Origin: a virus
Lineage: Duplodnaviria; Heunggongvirae; Uroviricota; Caudoviricetes
Virus record (IMG/VR): IMGVR_UViG_2718218133_000007
Reading direction: 5' to 3' (one strand)
DNA length: 46,024 bases
The first letter of the stretch is position 1, and each line of letters begins with the position of its first letter. The notes under the pieces are model-generated. The model did no database searches. It was given only the letters and a program-made list of their open reading frames with translations, and was not told the origin of the DNA. A program made the position numbers and the translations under genes. Below are positions 1 to 37,094 of the stretch, piece after piece.

Positions 1-750
1 TCAGTCAATTGTTTTGTTTATTCCATCTGTGACGCCGATTATTTTCTCAAAATAATGAGATGGCGTGACACCATAATAATCTTTAAATGCACATATGAAA
101 TATGAAGTACTGTTATAGCCACATTTCTGGGCTACGACATTGATAGAATAAGAGTTTGAAGTTATGAGTTTTTTTGCATACCTCATCCTAGTATCTCTCA
201 ATATTTCAGTAAATGACGTTCCTTCATCCCTTAATCTTTTTTTTATTAAACTTTCACTCGTATAAATCAATTCCGCAATATCTTTTAAATGCCATTGCCG
301 CTCAATATTAAAACTGATTATTCCAGTAATTTTACAGGTAAATGTATTTATATTTGTTAGTATAAATGAATTTACACTTTCGCGTTTTTTGAACATGGCA
401 AGTAAGGATATACATAGTCTTTCTTTTAACCAAAGGGAGTGTGAGTCTGCTATTTTAATCCCTTCAAACAGAGAAAAAACAAGCGATAATGGAGGTTCCT
501 CTTCAGCAATATAGCCATTCTTATCAAGAGTAAATTTGCCAGGCAGCTCATTATTCACGTCGATAAAAAAGGATAAACATGTTTTCTTATCTATATCAAC
601 AATTCTTAGTTTAGAGGGGCATACTGGTAACTCCCTTCTAATTTTGTCGCTTACAATAAACAATGAATTTTTTTTGAACGAGATAACTCTCCTGTTTATA
701 ATTAAATCAAATGATTGACAGATGAAAACTACGGAGCAAACATAATCCAT
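1..750 (-). CDS. appY: AraC-family transcriptional regulator, AppY-like (complete)
   Basis: 249-aa ORF with C-terminal AraC-type HTH (…[24 protein letters not shown]); matches my recollection of E. coli AppY (249 aa, DLP12 right end); long AT-rich region upstream. Confidence 0.75.
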
Positions 751-26547: not shown

Positions 26548-27015
26548 TCATCGAAGGCATTGCGTCCTGATGTATTCCTGAAGCGTTCTCAGTGCTGTTT
26601 GGTCGCGGATAATTCCGTCCCGGATACCGAGAACGTTTCGTCCAGCAACTGGAGAGAGTTCGACGGTGGCATCATTGCCCATGCCGGAGGCGCTGGAGGT
26701 TTCGGCTGAGGATGGCACAGGGCATTTTCCTTTGACGAGCACCCGACCACCATTATCAAGCTTGCGCCGAAGAGCATCATTTTCAGCTTTCGCATCAGCT
26801 AACTCCTTCGTGTATTTATCATCGAGTGCATCAGCATCACGCTGGCGCTGCTGCATGTCAGTAATGGTGGCGTTCGCCTTCTCCAGTTCACTGGCCTTGT
26901 TATCACGCTGTTCTTTGTAGGCGATTGCATTATCACGGTAATGATTAACAGCCCATGACAGGCAGACGATGATGCAGATAACCAGAGCGGAGATAATCGC
27001 GGTTACCCTGCTCAT
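26548..27015 (-). CDS. Rz: i-spanin Rz
   Basis: [31 protein letters not shown]… N-terminal TM plus coiled coil; start at second Met (track ORF to 27027); follows endolysin. Confidence 0.85.
26589..26795 (-). CDS. Rz1: o-spanin Rz1 (embedded in +1 frame within Rz)
   Basis: [19 protein letters not shown]… lipobox (VVGC) and proline-rich stretch; entirely inside Rz in another frame. Confidence 0.75.
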
Positions 27016-27509
27016 TGTTGCCCCCACAAACAGACCTCACGCTCAATCTCACGACGAGTCATCAGGCCTTTCCATTGCTTACCGCCAGCGTATGCCCAGC
27101 GACGTAGCTGGTCACATGCGCCCTTGATATCGCCCTGGTTTATTTTGCGAAGAAGAGTAGATGTTCTGAAATTGCCTGCGCCCACGTTATAGACGAACGA
27201 GTAAAGAGCGCCGCGCGTTGTTTCCGGTATATCGACTTTGATGTACGGGTTAATTTGTCTGGCTACCGTGGCAAGGTCTTTATTCAGGAGGGCTTTGCAT
27301 TCTGCTTCGGTATACGTTTTACCGGGAATGATGTCTTTTCCTGTATGCCCGTGACATACAGTCCATACGCCAACGATATCTTTGTATGGTATGTAGCTGA
27401 CACCTTCCAGACCATCGTTACCACTTGGGCCAGTGATTAACACTGATGCTATAGCAATTGCTCCGCCACCAATAGCAGCAGCAACGGCTTTTCGTAATGA
27501 TGGAGGCAT
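27012..27509 (-). CDS. R: SAR endolysin (T4-lysozyme-like, phage 21 R / RrrD type)
   Basis: 165-aa ORF; N-terminal Gly/Ala-rich signal-anchor-release segment ([20 protein letters not shown]), E…D…T catalytic motif region ([25 protein letters not shown]). Confidence 0.9.
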
Positions 27510-27724
27510 TATTCACCTCTCGCAGCCTTGCGCTTATCTTCTTTAATCTTGAAATAAAGGTTTGTCAGGTACGTCAGCAGGCCAAATACCAAGCTACCCA
27601 GCACACCTATTGCTGCCCACTGTGAGGGCGTGACTTTATCGAGCAGCTGTAAAAACCAGTAGCCAGCACTGCCTGCGGAGGTGCCGTAGGCAATGCCCGT
27701 TGTTAACTTATCCATGGATTTCAT
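27509..27724 (-). CDS. S: class II holin / pinholin (S21-like) with dual-start motif
   Basis: 71-aa [29 protein letters not shown]… two TMs; Met1-Lys-Ser-Met4 dual start typical of holin/antiholin pair. Confidence 0.9.
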
Positions 27725-27751: not shown

Positions 27752-27806
27752 GGTAATGCTGCCAACTTACTGATTTAGTGTATGATGGTGATTTTAAGGT
27801 GCTTGC

Positions 27807-28082
27807 GTGGCTTCCATTTCCATCAGATGTCCTTCCTGCTCCGCTACTGAAGGCGTGGTGCGTAACGGCAAAAGCACTGCCGGACATCAGCGCTATCTCT
27901 GCTCTCATTGCCGTAAAACATGGCAACTGCAGTTCACTTACACCGCTTCTCAACCCGGTACGCACCAGAAAATCATTGATATGGCCATGAATGGCGTTGG
28001 ATGCCGGGCAACTGCCCGCATTATGGGCGTTGGTCTCAACACGATTTTACGTCACTTAAAAAACTCAGGCCGCAGTCGGTAA
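27807..28082 (+). CDS. insA: IS1 InsA
   Basis: 91-aa [43 protein letters not shown]… matches recalled IS1 InsA (zinc finger + HTH). Confidence 0.9.
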
Positions 28083-28504
28083 CCTCGCGCATACAGCCGG
28101 GCAGTGACGTCATCGTCTGCGCGGAAATGGGCGAACAGTGGGGCTATGTCGGGGCTAAATCGCGCCAGCGCTGGCTGTTTTACGCGTATGACAGGCTCCG
28201 GAAGACGGTTGTTGCGCACGTATTCGGTGAACGCACGATGGCGACGCTGGGGCGTCTTATGAGCCTGCTGTCACCCTTTGACGTGGTGATATGGATGACG
28301 GATGGCTGGCCGCTGTATGAATCCCGCCTGAAGGGAAAGCTGCACGTAATCAGCAAGCGATATACGCAGCGAATTGAGCGGCATAACCTGAATCTGAGGC
28401 AGCACCTGGCACGGCTGGGACGGAAGTCGCTGTCGTTCTCAAAATCGGTGGAGCTGCATGACAAAGTCATCGGGCATTATCTGAACATAAAACACTATCA
28501 ATAA
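28001..28504 (+). CDS. insB: IS1 InsB (expressed as InsAB' transposase by -1 frameshift)
   Basis: 167-aa ORF matching recalled InsB; overlaps insA in -1 frame across the A6C motif (~28058-28064). Confidence 0.9.
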
Positions 28505-28519
28505 GTTGGAGTCATTACC

Positions 28520-28528
28520 AACGGATGG
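28520..28528. repeat. 9-bp target-site duplication (right copy, aacggatgg) of the IS1 insertion
   Basis: See left copy. Confidence 0.65.
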
Positions 28529-28688: not shown

Positions 28689-29429
28689 TTACATCATGTC
28701 TTTTTCTAAAAAAAATCTTGATGAATATTGATGGGGAGGAACACCAAAATACCTTCTGAAAACACTTACAAAATATGACGTGTTTTCATAACTGCATATC
28801 TCAGCAACTTTTCCAACAGAATATAAATTGTAGCTTAATAACCTTTCCGCCATCACCATTCGCTCTTCAAGAATTAACTTACTAAATGATAAGCCTTCGT
28901 GCTTTAATTTTCTTTTTAACAGACTTTCACTCAGATACAGTCTTGAAGATATATCACAAAGTCTCCATGCTGCAGATATATCCGTGTGAATAATAGCCTT
29001 AACTTTACTTCCTAAACTATTAAGACATCCAAATAAAAAACTTTGCACTATTTTCTCTGAAGATAAGATAGCAAGACATGCAAGTGATATTTGATTTCTA
29101 ACAAAATCCACAGTTCTGCCATCACAATTCAAGCATGCAATCAAGTTCTTTAACAATGAAAAATCTTCACATTCCACCATCAAGTATGCCGGATAAAACC
29201 TTCTTACAGAAAAAGGTGAGAGTGTGTTGCTTTTAAAGAAATCATTAACTGTTTTTTCTTCAACATCTACGATCATTACATGATCTATATTTGATGAAAA
29301 AAAATCTTTTAAATTGTAATCAATGAGAACAGCACTTCCTTTTTTAAACAAAATATCTTCTTTACCAATTCGGACATCAAACGAGTTCAACACCAAAATG
29401 ATAGAACATATGTATAGCATATTATCCAC
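28689..29429 (-). CDS. AraC-family transcriptional regulator (AppY/GadX-like paralogue), cargo gene
   Basis: 246-aa ORF; C-terminal AraC HTH (…YENTSYFVSVFRRYFGVPPHQY); N-terminal domain shows AppY-like pattern (ILFKKGSAVLID vs [13 protein letters not shown]); AT-rich own upstream region; hairpin+T-tract downstream. Confidence 0.8.
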   Translation of the reverse strand: MDNMLYICSIILVLNSFDVRIGKEDILFKKGSAVLIDYNLKDFFSSNIDHVMIVDVEEKTVNDFFKSNTLSPFSVRRFYPAYLMVECEDFSLLKNLIACLNCDGRTVDFVRNQISLACLAILSSEKIVQSFLFGCLNSLGSKVKAIIHTDISAAWRLCDISSRLYLSESLLKRKLKHEGLSFSKLILEERMVMAERLLSYNLYSVGKVAEICSYENTSYFVSVFRRYFGVPPHQYSSRFFLEKDMM

Positions 29430-29771
29430 CTGATATCATTGGGGTTACACCAGGTAAGTATAGGTGGAAAATCAATATTCGCCAGTTCAACAATAAGGAA
29501 AATTTCATTGCATCACAAGTATAAAATTATGTATTTAACTCACAAAGACAAATTATTAAACCAATCTGTTATATTATATATAGCTGCGTGGAATCATAAT
29601 ATTATATATTTTGACTGGCATGTTTACTAACTTTAAGTTGCATCTCAATTGTTTCTTCAGCGTAAACAGAGTTTTTATACAAACTGACACTCTGGGTATC
29701 ATAGTGTAGTTTTTACGATTGTAAATATCCTGCATGCAGGAACTCATCCTTTTGGATGATATCGCATACAA

Positions 29772-30731
29772 TTAATTTACCATCAGTCTTAGAGCCAGTT
29801 CGTCCGGATAGGGATCGAAGTAATTCTGTGTAAGCAAGTAATCATTAGGATACTCACCCAGATAATGCTTCAGCAGAGTCAACGGCGCAAGAAGAGGTAA
29901 TGTGCCAGAACGATAGTTAAGTATAACCTCGCTCAACTCTTTACGCTGGCGTGTACTTAAGTAGTTACTAAAATACCCCTGTATATGCATCAGCACATTC
30001 GTGTGATTTTTACGTGATGCAGGTTTTCTGAGAATCGCCATCAGCTTATCACGATACACCTCAAAGTATGATTCAAGGTCCGCCCACTCGTGTATTGCAG
30101 CCACAAATGGTCCCATATCTTTATAGCCTGCCTGACTATGCGCCAACAACTGAAGCTTATAACGACTATGAAAAGCTAATAACTCTCTTCTTGATAATTT
30201 CTCCTTGTAAAGGTGATTGAGCTCATGCAAAGCAAAAACTCTTTCAACAAAATTCTCACGAAGCACTGGATCATGTAATCGCCCATCCTCTTCAACCGGT
30301 AGCCAGGAAAACTTTTCCATCAAAGTGCTCGTAAATAGTCCCACTCCATCTTTACGACCTCGATTACCATTTTCATCATAGACACGCACGCGCTCCATGC
30401 CACAGCTGGGAGATTTAGCACAAACCACAAACCCCGATACATCCTTTAATTTGTCCATATAAGAACGACTAAACTCTGTCATTCTCTCTGTCACATCCTC
30501 ATTCTGGTCGTGGCTGAAACACATCCGTATATTTCCTTGCGTCGAGCGCACAAGACGTAGAGCAGGACGCGGAACTGGCAGCCCTATAGCCATTTCCGGA
30601 CATACTGGTCTGAATGTTACCCATTCCACTAATTTGTCCATTAAAAAGTCAGCTCTTTTGTGACCACCATCAAAACGAACAGCAGAACCGGCCAAACAAC
30701 CGCTGATTCCAATCACAGGTTTTTTTATCAT
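29772..30731 (-). CDS. YbgA-like protein (DUF523 N-terminal domain + DUF1722 C-terminal domain)
   Basis: 319-aa ORF; conserved YbgA-family blocks recalled from E. coli YbgA: IGISGCLAG…VRFDGGHK, FRPVCPEMAIGLPVPRP, KSPSCGMERV, LPVEEDGRL…LRENF, HSRYKLQLLAH, LPLLAPLTLLKHY. Confidence 0.75.
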   Translation of the reverse strand: MIKKPVIGISGCLAGSAVRFDGGHKRADFLMDKLVEWVTFRPVCPEMAIGLPVPRPALRLVRSTQGNIRMCFSHDQNEDVTERMTEFSRSYMDKLKDVSGFVVCAKSPSCGMERVRVYDENGNRGRKDGVGLFTSTLMEKFSWLPVEEDGRLHDPVLRENFVERVFALHELNHLYKEKLSRRELLAFHSRYKLQLLAHSQAGYKDMGPFVAAIHEWADLESYFEVYRDKLMAILRKPASRKNHTNVLMHIQGYFSNYLSTRQRKELSEVILNYRSGTLPLLAPLTLLKHYLGEYPNDYLLTQNYFDPYPDELALRLMVN

Positions 30732-30923
30732 ATTCTCCCCCTTGACTAATTCATTAACACATAAACTGTGTAGTGCACGGAATAAATTGCCTTTCTGGCG
30801 TCATCACTGACAATTTTTCTGTTATGGACTATTCCTAATATAGTATGAAAGTTCTTTAAGTGATCGGTCGTAATCATCTATCTTTCATACTTACTCTCAA
30901 CTATCAAAAGTACAGGATTTATT

Positions 30924-31448
30924 ATGAAGTTATGGCCTGTGTTGACTGGCATTGCACTCTCTTTCACTCTTATAGCATGTAAGGCCCCGACACCACCTAA
31001 AGGTGTGCAGCCGATTACAAATTTTGACGCCAACCGCTACCTCGGAAAATGGTATGAAATAGCTCGCCTCGAGAACCGGTTCGAACGTGGTCTGGAACAG
31101 GTCAGCGCTACTTATGGAAAACGGAACGACGGAGGGATTCGTGTACTTAACCGTGGATACGATCCAACGAAAAATAAATGGAGCGAGAGCGAAGGTAAAG
31201 CATACTTTACTGGAGATACTAAAACTGCAGCATTGAAGGTTTCGTTTTTTGGCCCCTTCTATGGTGGCTATAATGTAATCAAACTGGATGATGAGTATAA
31301 GTATGCTCTTGTCAGTGGTCCGAACAGAGAATACCTATGGATTCTGGCAAGGACCCCAACTATTCCAGATAAAGTAAAAGCAGACTATGTGCGAACCGCT
31401 CAAAAGTTGGGATTCAATGTCAATGAATTATTATGGGTTAAACAATAA
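30924..31448 (+). CDS. Blc-like bacterial lipocalin, outer-membrane lipoprotein
   Basis: 174-aa ORF with lipobox (LIAC), lipocalin motifs GKWYEIARLENRFERGLEQVSATY and KVSFFGPFYGGYNVI…YLWILARTP matching recalled Blc; only plus-strand gene inside the late region. Confidence 0.8.
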   Translation: MKLWPVLTGIALSFTLIACKAPTPPKGVQPITNFDANRYLGKWYEIARLENRFERGLEQVSATYGKRNDGGIRVLNRGYDPTKNKWSESEGKAYFTGDTKTAALKVSFFGPFYGGYNVIKLDDEYKYALVSGPNREYLWILARTPTIPDKVKADYVRTAQKLGFNVNELLWVKQ

Positions 31449-31480
31449 AATCCCTACCCGAAATAATACTTATTAGAAAA

Positions 31481-31505
31481 AAACCAGCCTTTGGGGAGGC
31501 TGGCT
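31481..31505. terminator. strong hairpin with A-tract/T-tract (bidirectional terminator; candidate tR' for the late promoter and terminator for blc-like)
   Basis: aaaaaaa-ccagcct-ttgggg-aggctgg; on the minus strand the stem is followed by ttttttt, ~100 nt downstream of Q. Confidence 0.55.
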
Positions 31506-31603
31506 AAATCAGGAAACAAGCTGTTATATGATAATAACTACGTTGCGATTCCAACATTTAAAATGTTAGACTAATGACAATCAGACAGCAACTTTTCCTT
31601 TAA

Positions 31604-31996
31604 TTATTTCGAACAATCAGCATCCATCTCCAATCGGAGATCCAACACCATCAGCATACCCTCCACTACGCCCTCAGCTTTCTGAAGCATCCTGCCAACC
31701 CAACAATCAGATCGCCCATGCTTACGTGCAAGCGCCATAAAAGTCATGCCGCCGACATAATAGTCCACCAATAAATCATGCAAATCGCTGTTGTTCTTTT
31801 TCAGACGGGCCATGCACCCGCAAATGATCATCGCGTCATCGTCACAACATTGTGGGCGAGATTTTACTTTTGAAGTAATTAATCCCTTAAAACCGGCGGC
31901 AATGGACGACCAGGTCACATCTTCATGATTATTAGCCGCCCACGCTCCCCAACGCTCAAGAACCATCTGAATATCACGCATCAACTTACTCCACAA
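31604..31996 (-). CDS. Q: late-gene antiterminator Q (QuuD / phage 82-type)
   Basis: …[34 protein letters not shown]…[16 protein letters not shown]… resembles recalled QuuD; position downstream of rusA and upstream of late region; true start may be an internal Met. Confidence 0.8.
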
Positions 31997-34911: not shown

Positions 34912-36438
34912 TCAAAAATAAACCTCACCATCAACCATATATTTGAGAGTACTTATCGCCTGCTGGGCGGATATTGTTTTCATTAAAGGATAGTGTTTAA
35001 AAACAATGCCATTCATAAAATAGATATCACAGGTTTTATTATCTGTATTGATTATGATTTTTTCGAATGTTTTATAGGCAAGTGTACGACATAGCTCTCG
35101 CCCATTTTTACTGGTTAAGTCAATAGCATGAAAATCACCAAGTGAACTCACCGCTTTACTCTTCAAAGTTTTTAATGATACAGAAGCCCTTCGTAATTCC
35201 TTATCTAATACTCTGATTTTTTCTGCTATAGCGGTAACTTCAGGCGCAACAGATAATGCAGCAATTAAATTATTAATTTTCATCTGGAGCTCAATAATTT
35301 TCAACTCTAAAGTTTCATTAGCATCTTTCTTGTTTTCAACTGGTTGGATTTTACTACAATTAAAAAGCAACTCATTAATGATATTATAATCAACCAAATC
35401 TCTCTTTATTGATGGCCTGTCACATCGATGCAGTCTTCTCATCGGACAAACATAATAGCCATGCAAACTTCCAGATACCGCATGAACAATCATGGTATTA
35501 CCACAAGCCTCGCACTTCATAACTGTTCGAAGTAGATTTATCAACATAGGATTTTTGCTACTATTGCTAATACCAAAAGGTGCCAACCGAATTTCCTGTA
35601 CAGCGTAAAACAAATCATCTGATATGACTCTGGGATAATAGCCAGCGATTTCACTTATTCCTTTACCTCTTGCACGATATGAAGGTACGCATATACCTAT
35701 CAGAGCTTTATTCGCTAATAATTTTTCAATTACAGAAGGTCCCCATGCACTTTCTTTTCCTGAGAAATTCTTTACAGCATGATCATTTAAATACTTGGCT
35801 ATTGCATTCAATGAGCGCCTTTCCATCCTGAGTTTAAAAATTAGCTCAATAGTTTTCACCCTGTCGGGGTCTGGAACAAAAGCCGTTCTTTTGTCATCTA
35901 AGGAGAGCCATCTCGGACAAGACGCCGTCATAATCGTACCTGATTCCAGTGCATCCTGCCGTTTTTTCTTCCATGATAATTTAACCCGACTTGACTTTAT
36001 CTCGCTTTCTTCATTTGCCCTTTGTGCTATAAGTATGGCTTTTATTAATGAATATGGCTCATTCAAAGAGTCAATATTATAGACTGTATTGTCGCAAAGA
36101 GTTATAACATCAATACCGTGATTCAAAATCAATTTCAGACGTTCAATCGCTTCACCGACTTTTTCTCTTGAAAGTCTGTCCAGACTTTCAACTAACAATG
36201 TAGTTCCTGGCAATATATAACCATGCTCTATAGCATCTAAAAATTCCGAAAAAGCTCCTGATTGTGCATGCTTTCCTTTGAATGCACTTAATCCTAAATC
36301 TTCATATGTTATGGTATCAAGATAATAATCACTATTTACCTTTAACCATTCAGCAATAAGTCTTCTCTGTCGGTTTAATGAGTCGCCAGACATCTGACCT
36401 GGTGATGAAAATCGCATATATGCTATGGCTTTTTTCAT
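34912..36438 (-). CDS. ybcK: large serine recombinase (resolvase/invertase-type N-terminal domain, recombinase domain, zinc ribbon, coiled coil), YbcK-like
   Basis: 508-aa ORF; N-terminal …AIAYMRFSSPGQ… with candidate catalytic Ser; Cys cluster CEACG…C…C; AT-rich; adjacent to emrE as in DLP12. Confidence 0.75.
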   Translation of the reverse strand: MKKAIAYMRFSSPGQMSGDSLNRQRRLIAEWLKVNSDYYLDTITYEDLGLSAFKGKHAQSGAFSEFLDAIEHGYILPGTTLLVESLDRLSREKVGEAIERLKLILNHGIDVITLCDNTVYNIDSLNEPYSLIKAILIAQRANEESEIKSSRVKLSWKKKRQDALESGTIMTASCPRWLSLDDKRTAFVPDPDRVKTIELIFKLRMERRSLNAIAKYLNDHAVKNFSGKESAWGPSVIEKLLANKALIGICVPSYRARGKGISEIAGYYPRVISDDLFYAVQEIRLAPFGISNSSKNPMLINLLRTVMKCEACGNTMIVHAVSGSLHGYYVCPMRRLHRCDRPSIKRDLVDYNIINELLFNCSKIQPVENKKDANETLELKIIELQMKINNLIAALSVAPEVTAIAEKIRVLDKELRRASVSLKTLKSKAVSSLGDFHAIDLTSKNGRELCRTLAYKTFEKIIINTDNKTCDIYFMNGIVFKHYPLMKTISAQQAISTLKYMVDGEVYF

Positions 36439-36694
36439 GGTGACACCTGCTAACGTATGCTTTTATAAACCTTAGTGGTGGGATATAATTTTTGTTTAAT
36501 TTTTATTTAAAAAGACAATTAAGGTCACATTATCTTGAATATACAACAATAATCGTATTGCAATTTTCTTACGCCATAATCTTGAAAGCACAAAAGAATA
36601 CATAAAAAAATAAAGACATTAACAAAAAGCATAAAACGAGGCTCATATAAATATAAGAGCCTCCATATTTTAGTCGTTTAGAAACAAATTATTT

Positions 36695-37027
36695 TTAATG
36701 TGGTGTGCTTCGTGACAATAAATTAATAACCAACACACCGGCACAAATCAACATCATGCCTATAATGGCTGGCAGGTCCAGCCGTTGGCCGAAAAGTCCC
36801 CATGACAGTAAGCTAATCAGGACAATACCGACTCCTGACCAGATAGCATAAGCAATCCCTGTAGGAATATAAGCCAGCGTCTGAGCTAATAACCAGAATG
36901 ATGCACAATAACAAATAATTGTACCAACAGATGGCCATAACCGTGTAAAACCTTCTGAAAACTTCATTAAGGTTGTACCAATGACCTCTGCAAGTATTGC
37001 ACCACCAAGATAAATATAAGGGTTCAT
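36695..37027 (-). CDS. emrE: small multidrug resistance efflux transporter EmrE
   Basis: 110 aa from MNPYIYLGGAILAEVIGTTLMKFSEGF… matches recalled EmrE; four TM segments; ORF track extends to 37081. Confidence 0.9.
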   Translation of the reverse strand: MNPYIYLGGAILAEVIGTTLMKFSEGFTRLWPSVGTIICYCASFWLLAQTLAYIPTGIAYAIWSGVGIVLISLLSWGLFGQRLDLPAIIGMMLICAGVLVINLLSRSTPH

Positions 37028-37094
37028 AGAATATTCTTTCCTGTTCAAACTGGAGAGAATTGTACTACAGTTTGAACTCAACTCACCTGTTTCA

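Follow-up and report, generated by a model that had tools for sequence, protein, structure and literature searches.

What does a two-domain desulfurase-like protein do when its gene lies between the antiterminator and the lysis genes of an Escherichia coli prophage, and is it a new kind of system? The question arises from a 46,024-nt stretch of DNA, hereafter the window, from a tailed virus (Caudoviricetes; IMG/VR record IMGVR_UViG_2718218133_000007), in which an intact open reading frame occupies exactly the interval given below, preceded by a ribosome-binding site.

29772..30731, minus strand: rudS, 319 aa with an ATG start, a TudS(DUF523)-DUF1722 fusion and predicted [4Fe-4S] tRNA 4-thiouridine desulfidase
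30735..30742, minus strand: strong Shine-Dalgarno sequence AGGGGGAG, 3 nt before the rudS ATG, read from the sequence

Identity of the protein as RudS

The DUF523 plus DUF1722 composition proposed in an initial annotation was borne out by Pfam, as PF04463 (2-thiouracil desulfurase, formerly DUF523) matched residues 7-149 of the rudS product across the entire profile (E = 3.1e-40, 137.9 bits), and PF08349 (DUF1722) matched residues 192-309 at profile positions 1-117 of 117 (E = 1.9e-40, 138.2 bits), both scores lying far above the curated cutoffs of 34.7 and 22.5 bits, respectively. A Foldseek search with a predicted structure returned the TudS entries 6z96, 6zw9 and 6z92 as the sole credible PDB matches (probability 1.0, 142 columns, 28% identity), in keeping with the annotation's remark that the DUF523 family includes iron-sulfur thiouracil desulfidases, while the DUF1722 half found no solved structural relative in the same PDB search, its estrogen-receptor matches at E > 0.5 being noise. 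The AlphaFold model used is mediocre, with a mean pLDDT of 65 and values below 50 for residues 12-31 and 281-319, and it was built from a shallow alignment in which every homologue was 70-77% identical.

The TudS-DUF1722 fusion was named RudS by Jamontas et al. (2024, NAR 52:10543; PMC11417400), who reported that it desulfurates 4-thiouridine (s4U) in tRNA via a [4Fe-4S] cluster held by three cysteines and that its overexpression cuts tRNA s4U 4.7- to 26-fold. All six RudS genes tested in that study, RudS_vir among them, lowered tRNA s4U in E. coli, and mutating the catalytic or tRNA-binding residues of RudS_KT reduced or abolished activity (PMC11417400). A check for the Fe-S ligand cysteines found C12, C44 and C110 present in the window protein and invariant in both alignments (with 11 and 25 homologues), in which E46, R55, S107, S109, S239 and R240 were likewise invariant. 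By HMMER, C12, C44 and E46 align with Cys10, Cys43 and Glu45 of TudS (PDB 6z92), in a profile alignment that ends at residue 58 of the window protein, short of the third cysteine. Equivalences to RudS_KT were assigned by offset from the cysteines rather than by direct alignment to RudS_KT, with Glu46 at Cys44+2, Arg55 at Cys44+11, Ser107 at Cys110-3 and Ser109 at Cys110-1, and on this basis the catalytic Glu51, Arg60, Ser111 and Ser113 of RudS_KT correspond to Glu46, Arg55, Ser107 and Ser109 in the window. By the same offsets, the tRNA-binding Arg24, Tyr25, Asn26, Ser243 and Arg244 of RudS_KT correspond to Arg19, Phe20, Asp21, Ser239 and Arg240, so that the Arg, Ser and Arg are retained while Tyr is replaced by Phe and Asn by Asp.

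The most direct comparison is with RudS_vir, which is gp66 of Escherichia phage 1H12 (NC_049947, YP_009909557.1) with cluster ligands Cys12, Cys44 and Cys110 (PMC11417400 Table 1). Both proteins are 319 aa long and align gaplessly with 298 of 319 residues identical (93%), and none of the 21 substitutions falls at a catalytic or cluster position. This near-identity to an assayed enzyme, together with the intact catalytic residues, makes it highly probable that the window protein is RudS, predicted to convert s4U in tRNA to U in a [4Fe-4S]-dependent manner, and the exact window allele would be expected to share that activity. The initial annotation had suggested action on modified nucleobases or in DNA-damage tolerance; the known substrate is a modified nucleoside of tRNA, not DNA or free bases.

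A common chromosomal ybgA gene captured by assembly error was also considered and is out. The E. coli core YbgA (b0707), a DUF1722 protein, is 49% identical over 152 residues to window residues 164-315, in the DUF1722 half only; the window protein scored 190.8 bits against the YbgA equivalog model PRK10167, below the 237-bit cutoff; and core ybgA is present separately, as one copy beside phrB, in 5422 of the 5426 complete E. coli genomes. Together these exclude both an assembly artefact and a captured ybgA.

The blc-rudS-araC module and its expected transcription

Compared with the annotated prophage of FDAARGOS_497, whose cassette is identical, the window is a lambdoid prophage of the DLP12 type at tRNA-Arg that appears to be complete. 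The early side holds intD at the right end, Gam/Bet/Exo, a CI-like S24 repressor and the O/P replication genes, followed further along by emrE, ybcK, ybcN-ninE-ybcO-rusA, Q, the cassette, essD/rrrD/Rz, terminase, and the head and tail genes. The genes and insertion around rudS are as follows.

31604..31996, minus strand: Q antiterminator of the late operon (Pfam Phage_antitermQ, E = 1e-50)
30924..31448, plus strand: blc-like outer-membrane lipocalin lipoprotein (Pfam Lipocalin_2, E = 7e-44), opposing the late operon
28689..29429, minus strand: AraC-family regulator of the YdeO/GadX/Psr type (Pfam HTH_18 and HTH_AraC)
27753..28520: complete IS1 (insA/insB) separating the AraC gene from the holin gene and bordered by a 9-bp duplication, CCATCCGTT
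26548..27724, minus strand: lysis genes (holin 27509..27724, lysozyme 27012..27509, Rz-like spanin 26548..27027)

The distance from the Q gene down to rudS is 870 bp, and the lysis genes lie further downstream; this place between Q and lysis on a common strand puts rudS at the head of the late operon, confirming the late-region location first proposed for it. The lysis genes are annotated as essD, rrrD and lysis protein in the matching FDAARGOS_497 prophage. A three-gene accessory module, consisting of the blc-like lipocalin gene, rudS and the AraC-like gene, thus fills the variable slot between Q and the lysis genes, the slot that holds stx in Stx phages and nmpC in the DLP12 prophage of K-12. 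The lipocalin scored 316 bits against the NCBIfam Blc subfamily model (cutoff 267). The AraC-like gene has its RefSeq start at the ATG at 29420, giving 243 aa, and its product has YdeO as its top NCBIfam match, below cutoff. This product shares 47% identity with PsrA (ECs_1087) from prophage Sp4 of O157 Sakai, a level at which we rejected orthology with PsrA, the two being different proteins of the same broad group. There is no photolyase gene in the window's cassette, and a literature search on the RefSeq accessions or on prophage lipocalin/AraC cassettes found nothing specific.

Two further features of the window lie away from the module. A second AraC-family gene of the YdeO/GadX type (positions 1-750, minus strand, 249 aa) sits in a 30% GC stretch at the left end, giving the prophage two such regulators, and its position is that of appY in K-12 DLP12. 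In the early region, an AT-rich island (34912-37081, minus strand, ~35% GC) encodes a ybcK-like large serine recombinase of 508 aa and the multidrug efflux protein EmrE, the latter scoring 238.8 bits against the NCBIfam EmrE model (cutoff 226).

Promoter and terminator scans of the region around the module, supplemented by eye, gave the following sites.

31591..31563, minus strand: candidate pR' hexamers TTGCTG-17-TAACAT, putative, found by eye
31472..31505, minus strand: terminator-like hairpin and T-run, candidate tR', which also faces the 3' end of blc (terminator scan)
30732..30923: divergent blc-rudS intergenic region, 192 bp (spacing 193 bp in 79 of 80 viral contigs)
30900..30873, minus strand: weak sigma-70-like match in the blc-rudS intergenic region (promoter scan)
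29725..29698, upstream of the AraC gene: sigma-70-like promoter matching at 10 of 12 positions (promoter scan)

The candidate pR' and the strong hairpin would together yield a tR'-terminated transcript of ~80 nt. Rfam gave no match for the candidate pR'-tR' stretch (31472-31600), nor any structured RNA in the window at gathering thresholds. From the candidate tR' to the lysis genes, no terminator-like site was found on the rudS strand except a weak one at the IS1 end. Given that rudS is on the late-operon strand with no terminator-like site intervening, Q-modified RNA polymerase should transcribe it after induction, and rudS would be the first sense gene of a late transcript that first runs antisense through blc. 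From this position we infer that rudS is expressed on induction, and perhaps in lysogens too. The 10/12 site suggests that the AraC gene has a promoter of its own.

The IS1 element, whose terminal repeats and duplication were read from the sequence, lies 22 bp upstream of the holin start, where it could influence read-through of the late operon into the lysis genes; the insertion is absent from most related viral contigs. The two phage allele groups share a conserved blc-rudS intergenic region, for which no alignment with the chromosomal loci of Citrobacter could be made, and we therefore rejected a shared promoter captured along with the genes.

Distribution, selection and origin

The initial annotation regarded such a gene as unusual phage cargo, a view that the distribution contradicts. 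Of 5426 complete E. coli genomes, 1182 (22%) carry rudS; 1110 of these retain at least 80% of its length, and the other 72 have partial copies only. The cassette also matched 12 deposited phage records and at least 127 stretches in IMG/VR. Isolated phages with the module include 1H12, the Lambda_ev series and IdasGreatGrand, a hypothetical protein of which is identical to the window RudS at 318 of 319 residues. Among the best 80 IMG/VR viral contigs, the order Q, blc (on the opposite strand), rudS, araC and lysis genes was kept in all 80, with nearly constant spacing and Q invariably directly upstream of the cassette. This fixed blc-rudS-araC module downstream of Q predicts co-expression with the phage late genes. 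In E. coli HS, the cassette lies in a Qin-like prophage. The primary RudS paper (PMC11417400) describes E. coli as lacking RudS, and a 2026 MMBR review does likewise.

The searches also returned several copies outside this pattern. E. coli BL21 (NZ_CP084683.1, 235836-235982) has just a 147-bp remnant of the rudS 5' end, from the part encoding the TudS domain, which carries the annotation 2-thiouracil desulfurase family protein. At ~60 places, E. coli plasmids (e.g., NZ_CP116914.1, 1-8542) carry a different RudS gene with 66% nucleotide identity, in the order partial lipocalin, MerR, uraH-like, rudS and AAA ATPase, as in the Enterobacter chromosome and beside IS26; it looks like an Enterobacter chromosomal fragment mobilised by IS26. 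Two short metagenome-assembled contigs assigned to 'Candidatus Nanosynbacter' (Saccharibacteria; JARKOR01) hold the E. coli cassette with 94-100% protein identity and are almost certainly mis-binned E. coli phage DNA. Finally, one 403-aa database protein joins E. coli RudS (99% identity, 92% coverage) to a GGDEF domain (PF00990); with one member on one contig, it is probably a fusion that arose from an insertion or an assembly error.

Between the window and 1H12 alleles, which represent the two phage allele groups, rudS has a dN/dS of 0.106 at a dS of 0.29, indicating that it is maintained by purifying selection; the same comparison gave 0.06 for blc and 0.26 for the AraC gene. The E. coli RudS protein cluster comprises 2556 members that are ~99% identical, followed by a gap to at most 77%, with Citrobacter next. 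The nearest relatives are chromosomal genes of Citrobacter, Kluyvera, Enterobacter, Leclercia, Klebsiella and Pectobacterium, which are 66-77% identical.

The neighbourhoods of these relatives bear on the photolyase linkage that the initial annotation had put forward, which stands for the DUF1722-only core ybgA but fails for the RudS clade: a tblastn search with K-12 Phr around the 64 closest chromosomal relatives found no photolyase at a distance of 6 kb or less. In ~40 of these 64 enterobacterial chromosomes, rudS has a linked lipocalin gene whose product shares ~80% identity with that of the phage, and the Enterobacter order is blc (on the opposite strand), an MlrA-like MerR regulator, a transthyretin-like protein and rudS. 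In Enterobacter, Leclercia and their kin (~40 loci), the MlrA-like MerR gene and a transthyretin/HIUase-like gene precede rudS, with blc divergent. In the enterobacterial clade, the genes that accompany rudS thus encode a lipocalin, an MlrA-like MerR regulator and a transthyretin-like protein instead of a photolyase, a neighbourhood unlike the photolyase/LitR operons reported for Pseudomonas RudS.

The blc and rudS genes of Citrobacter sedlakii are immediate neighbours with divergent orientation, an arrangement shared with the phage. The phage module appears to descend from a blc-rudS pair captured long ago, with loss of the MerR regulator and gain of an AraC-like gene. The GC content of rudS is 43%, that of the phage portal gene 58% and that of the chromosomal homologues 51-59%, and the difference between 43% and 51-59%, together with the unalignable intergenic region, argues against a recent transfer. 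No recent donor was identified, given the gap from 99% to at most 77% identity in the protein database and the much lower GC content of the phage gene.

Possible role and comparison with known systems

In the mechanism that we propose, Q-modified polymerase would read rudS after induction, and the helical DUF1722 domain would dock the product on tRNA. The TudS domain would carry a [4Fe-4S] cluster on Cys12, Cys44 and Cys110, whose free fourth iron may bind the thiocarbonyl sulfur of 4-thiouridine while Glu46, Ser107 and Ser109 catalyse the replacement of sulfur by oxygen, leaving tRNA with U8 in place of s4U8. In the cell, a lower tRNA s4U content would mean fewer s4U8-C13 cross-links under near-UV (UVA) light and a weaker UVA growth delay, a rescue that was shown for Pseudomonas RudS_KT only (PMC11417400). 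Late-only expression after UV might come too late, since RudS acts before irradiation and has no known cross-link repair activity. It is a tentative reading, to which we give a minority of our confidence, that prophage RudS is an eraser of a host tRNA modification, transcribed late from pR' under Q as Stx is and possibly at a low level in lysogens; any benefit of rudS to the phage or the lysogen is one that we infer.

Other roles can be weighed against the same evidence. Phage RudS might mainly perform TudS-like salvage or detoxification of free 4-thiouracil or 4-thio-UMP rather than act on intact tRNA, with thiolated pyrimidines from degraded host tRNA being recycled to the UMP pool during lytic growth. 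In a uracil auxotroph, RudS_vir gave the shortest lag on 4-thiouracil of the RudS tested, with growth delayed on 4-thiouracil and absent on 2-thiouracil, and it desulfidated less tRNA than RudS_ST at a similar protein level, a comparatively low activity despite high soluble protein (PMC11417400). The catalytic domain is moreover a TudS domain, and stand-alone TudS enzymes are reported to recycle 4-thio-UMP (PMC10611767). However, no RudS supported growth as TudS did, leading the authors to conclude that thiouracils are not the primary substrates, and RudS_vir did lower tRNA s4U (PMC11417400); the DUF1722 tRNA-docking domain is also under purifying selection, with the Ser239/Arg240 equivalents invariant. 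Salvage is therefore unlikely as the main role, though it is kept as a minor rival because RudS_vir is less active on tRNA than RudS_ST and the best of the RudS on 4-thiouracil.

We attach almost no weight to a counter-defence or DNA-directed function, in which RudS would remove sulfur from a thiolated defence target or alter tRNAs against anticodon nucleases. What speaks for it is position, as the slot between Q and lysis often holds accessory genes expressed on induction. However, RudS, the AraC-like protein and the lipocalin had no PADLOC match (E <= 0.01) and no PADLOC model adjoined the cassette, so that the anti-defence or repair role floated in the initial annotation found no support, and the PHROGs of the cassette (3275, 1450 and 2809) are all of unknown function. 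No defence system that relies on s4U8 is known to us, and the genes most closely related to rudS are unremarkable chromosomal ones with MerR, transthyretin-like and lipocalin neighbours. Chemically, the family is known for removing sulfur from the C4 thiocarbonyl of uracil rings and not from phosphorothioates (PMC11417400). It is also very improbable, if slightly less so, that rudS is a passenger, captured with blc or hitch-hiking with the AraC-like regulator and contributing nothing. Such a view would accommodate the interruption of the gene or cassette by IS1 in one genome or IS2 in three, the 72 of 1182 genomes with only partial copies, and a cassette that is AT-rich relative to the phage (43% GC in rudS, 58% in the portal gene). 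AT-richness is typical of horizontally acquired genes, which are often silenced by H-NS. Against it stand the dN/dS of 0.106 over a dS of 0.29, a reading frame of at least 80% in 1110 of the 1182 genomes, the invariance of all catalytic residues, the strong ribosome-binding site and an orthologue that is active when expressed (PMC11417400).

If prophage RudS does act as an eraser of tRNA s4U, about one-fifth of E. coli strains would differ from K-12 in near-UV physiology by virtue of a prophage gene. Given that 22% of complete E. coli genomes carry prophage rudS, experiments on s4U or near-UV responses in natural isolates of E. coli may deviate from those in K-12.

Among known systems, the assayed phage enzyme is closest. 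1H12 and the window are both lambdoid siphoviruses of E. coli, and they share the flanking genes Q, Blc lipocalin, rudS, an AraC-like hypothetical protein and holin, whereas the window allele belongs to the commoner group (at least 99% identity in 623 records) and sits in a DLP12-like backbone at argU that has an IS1 copy between its AraC and holin genes. The bacterial enzymes RudS_KT (P. putida PP_0741) and RudS_ST/ORF319 (Salmonella SPI-2 STM1389) have the same TudS-DUF1722 architecture and catalytic residues as the window protein, and ORF319 equals it in length and cysteine numbering. Their settings differ, as Pseudomonas rudS lies in light-regulated operons with phrB and LitR, neither of which accompanies the prophage copy, and Salmonella rudS is under a MerR-family regulator, whereas the prophage copy has none and adjoins an AraC-like gene in a late operon.

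The predicted catalytic-domain fold of the N-terminal half is common to TudS (PDB 6Z92/6Z96), but TudS is a single-domain protein without DUF1722, whereas the window protein has two domains; TudS acts on free thiouracils and 4-thio-UMP and causes no drop in tRNA s4U in vivo (PMC11417400). Core YbgA, by contrast, is a 169-aa protein without a TudS domain whose gene overlaps the start of phr in K-12, and it has no effect on tRNA s4U (PMC11417400). Both the RudS family and a phage representative of it are thus already published, and the window gene adds a further member rather than a new kind of system.
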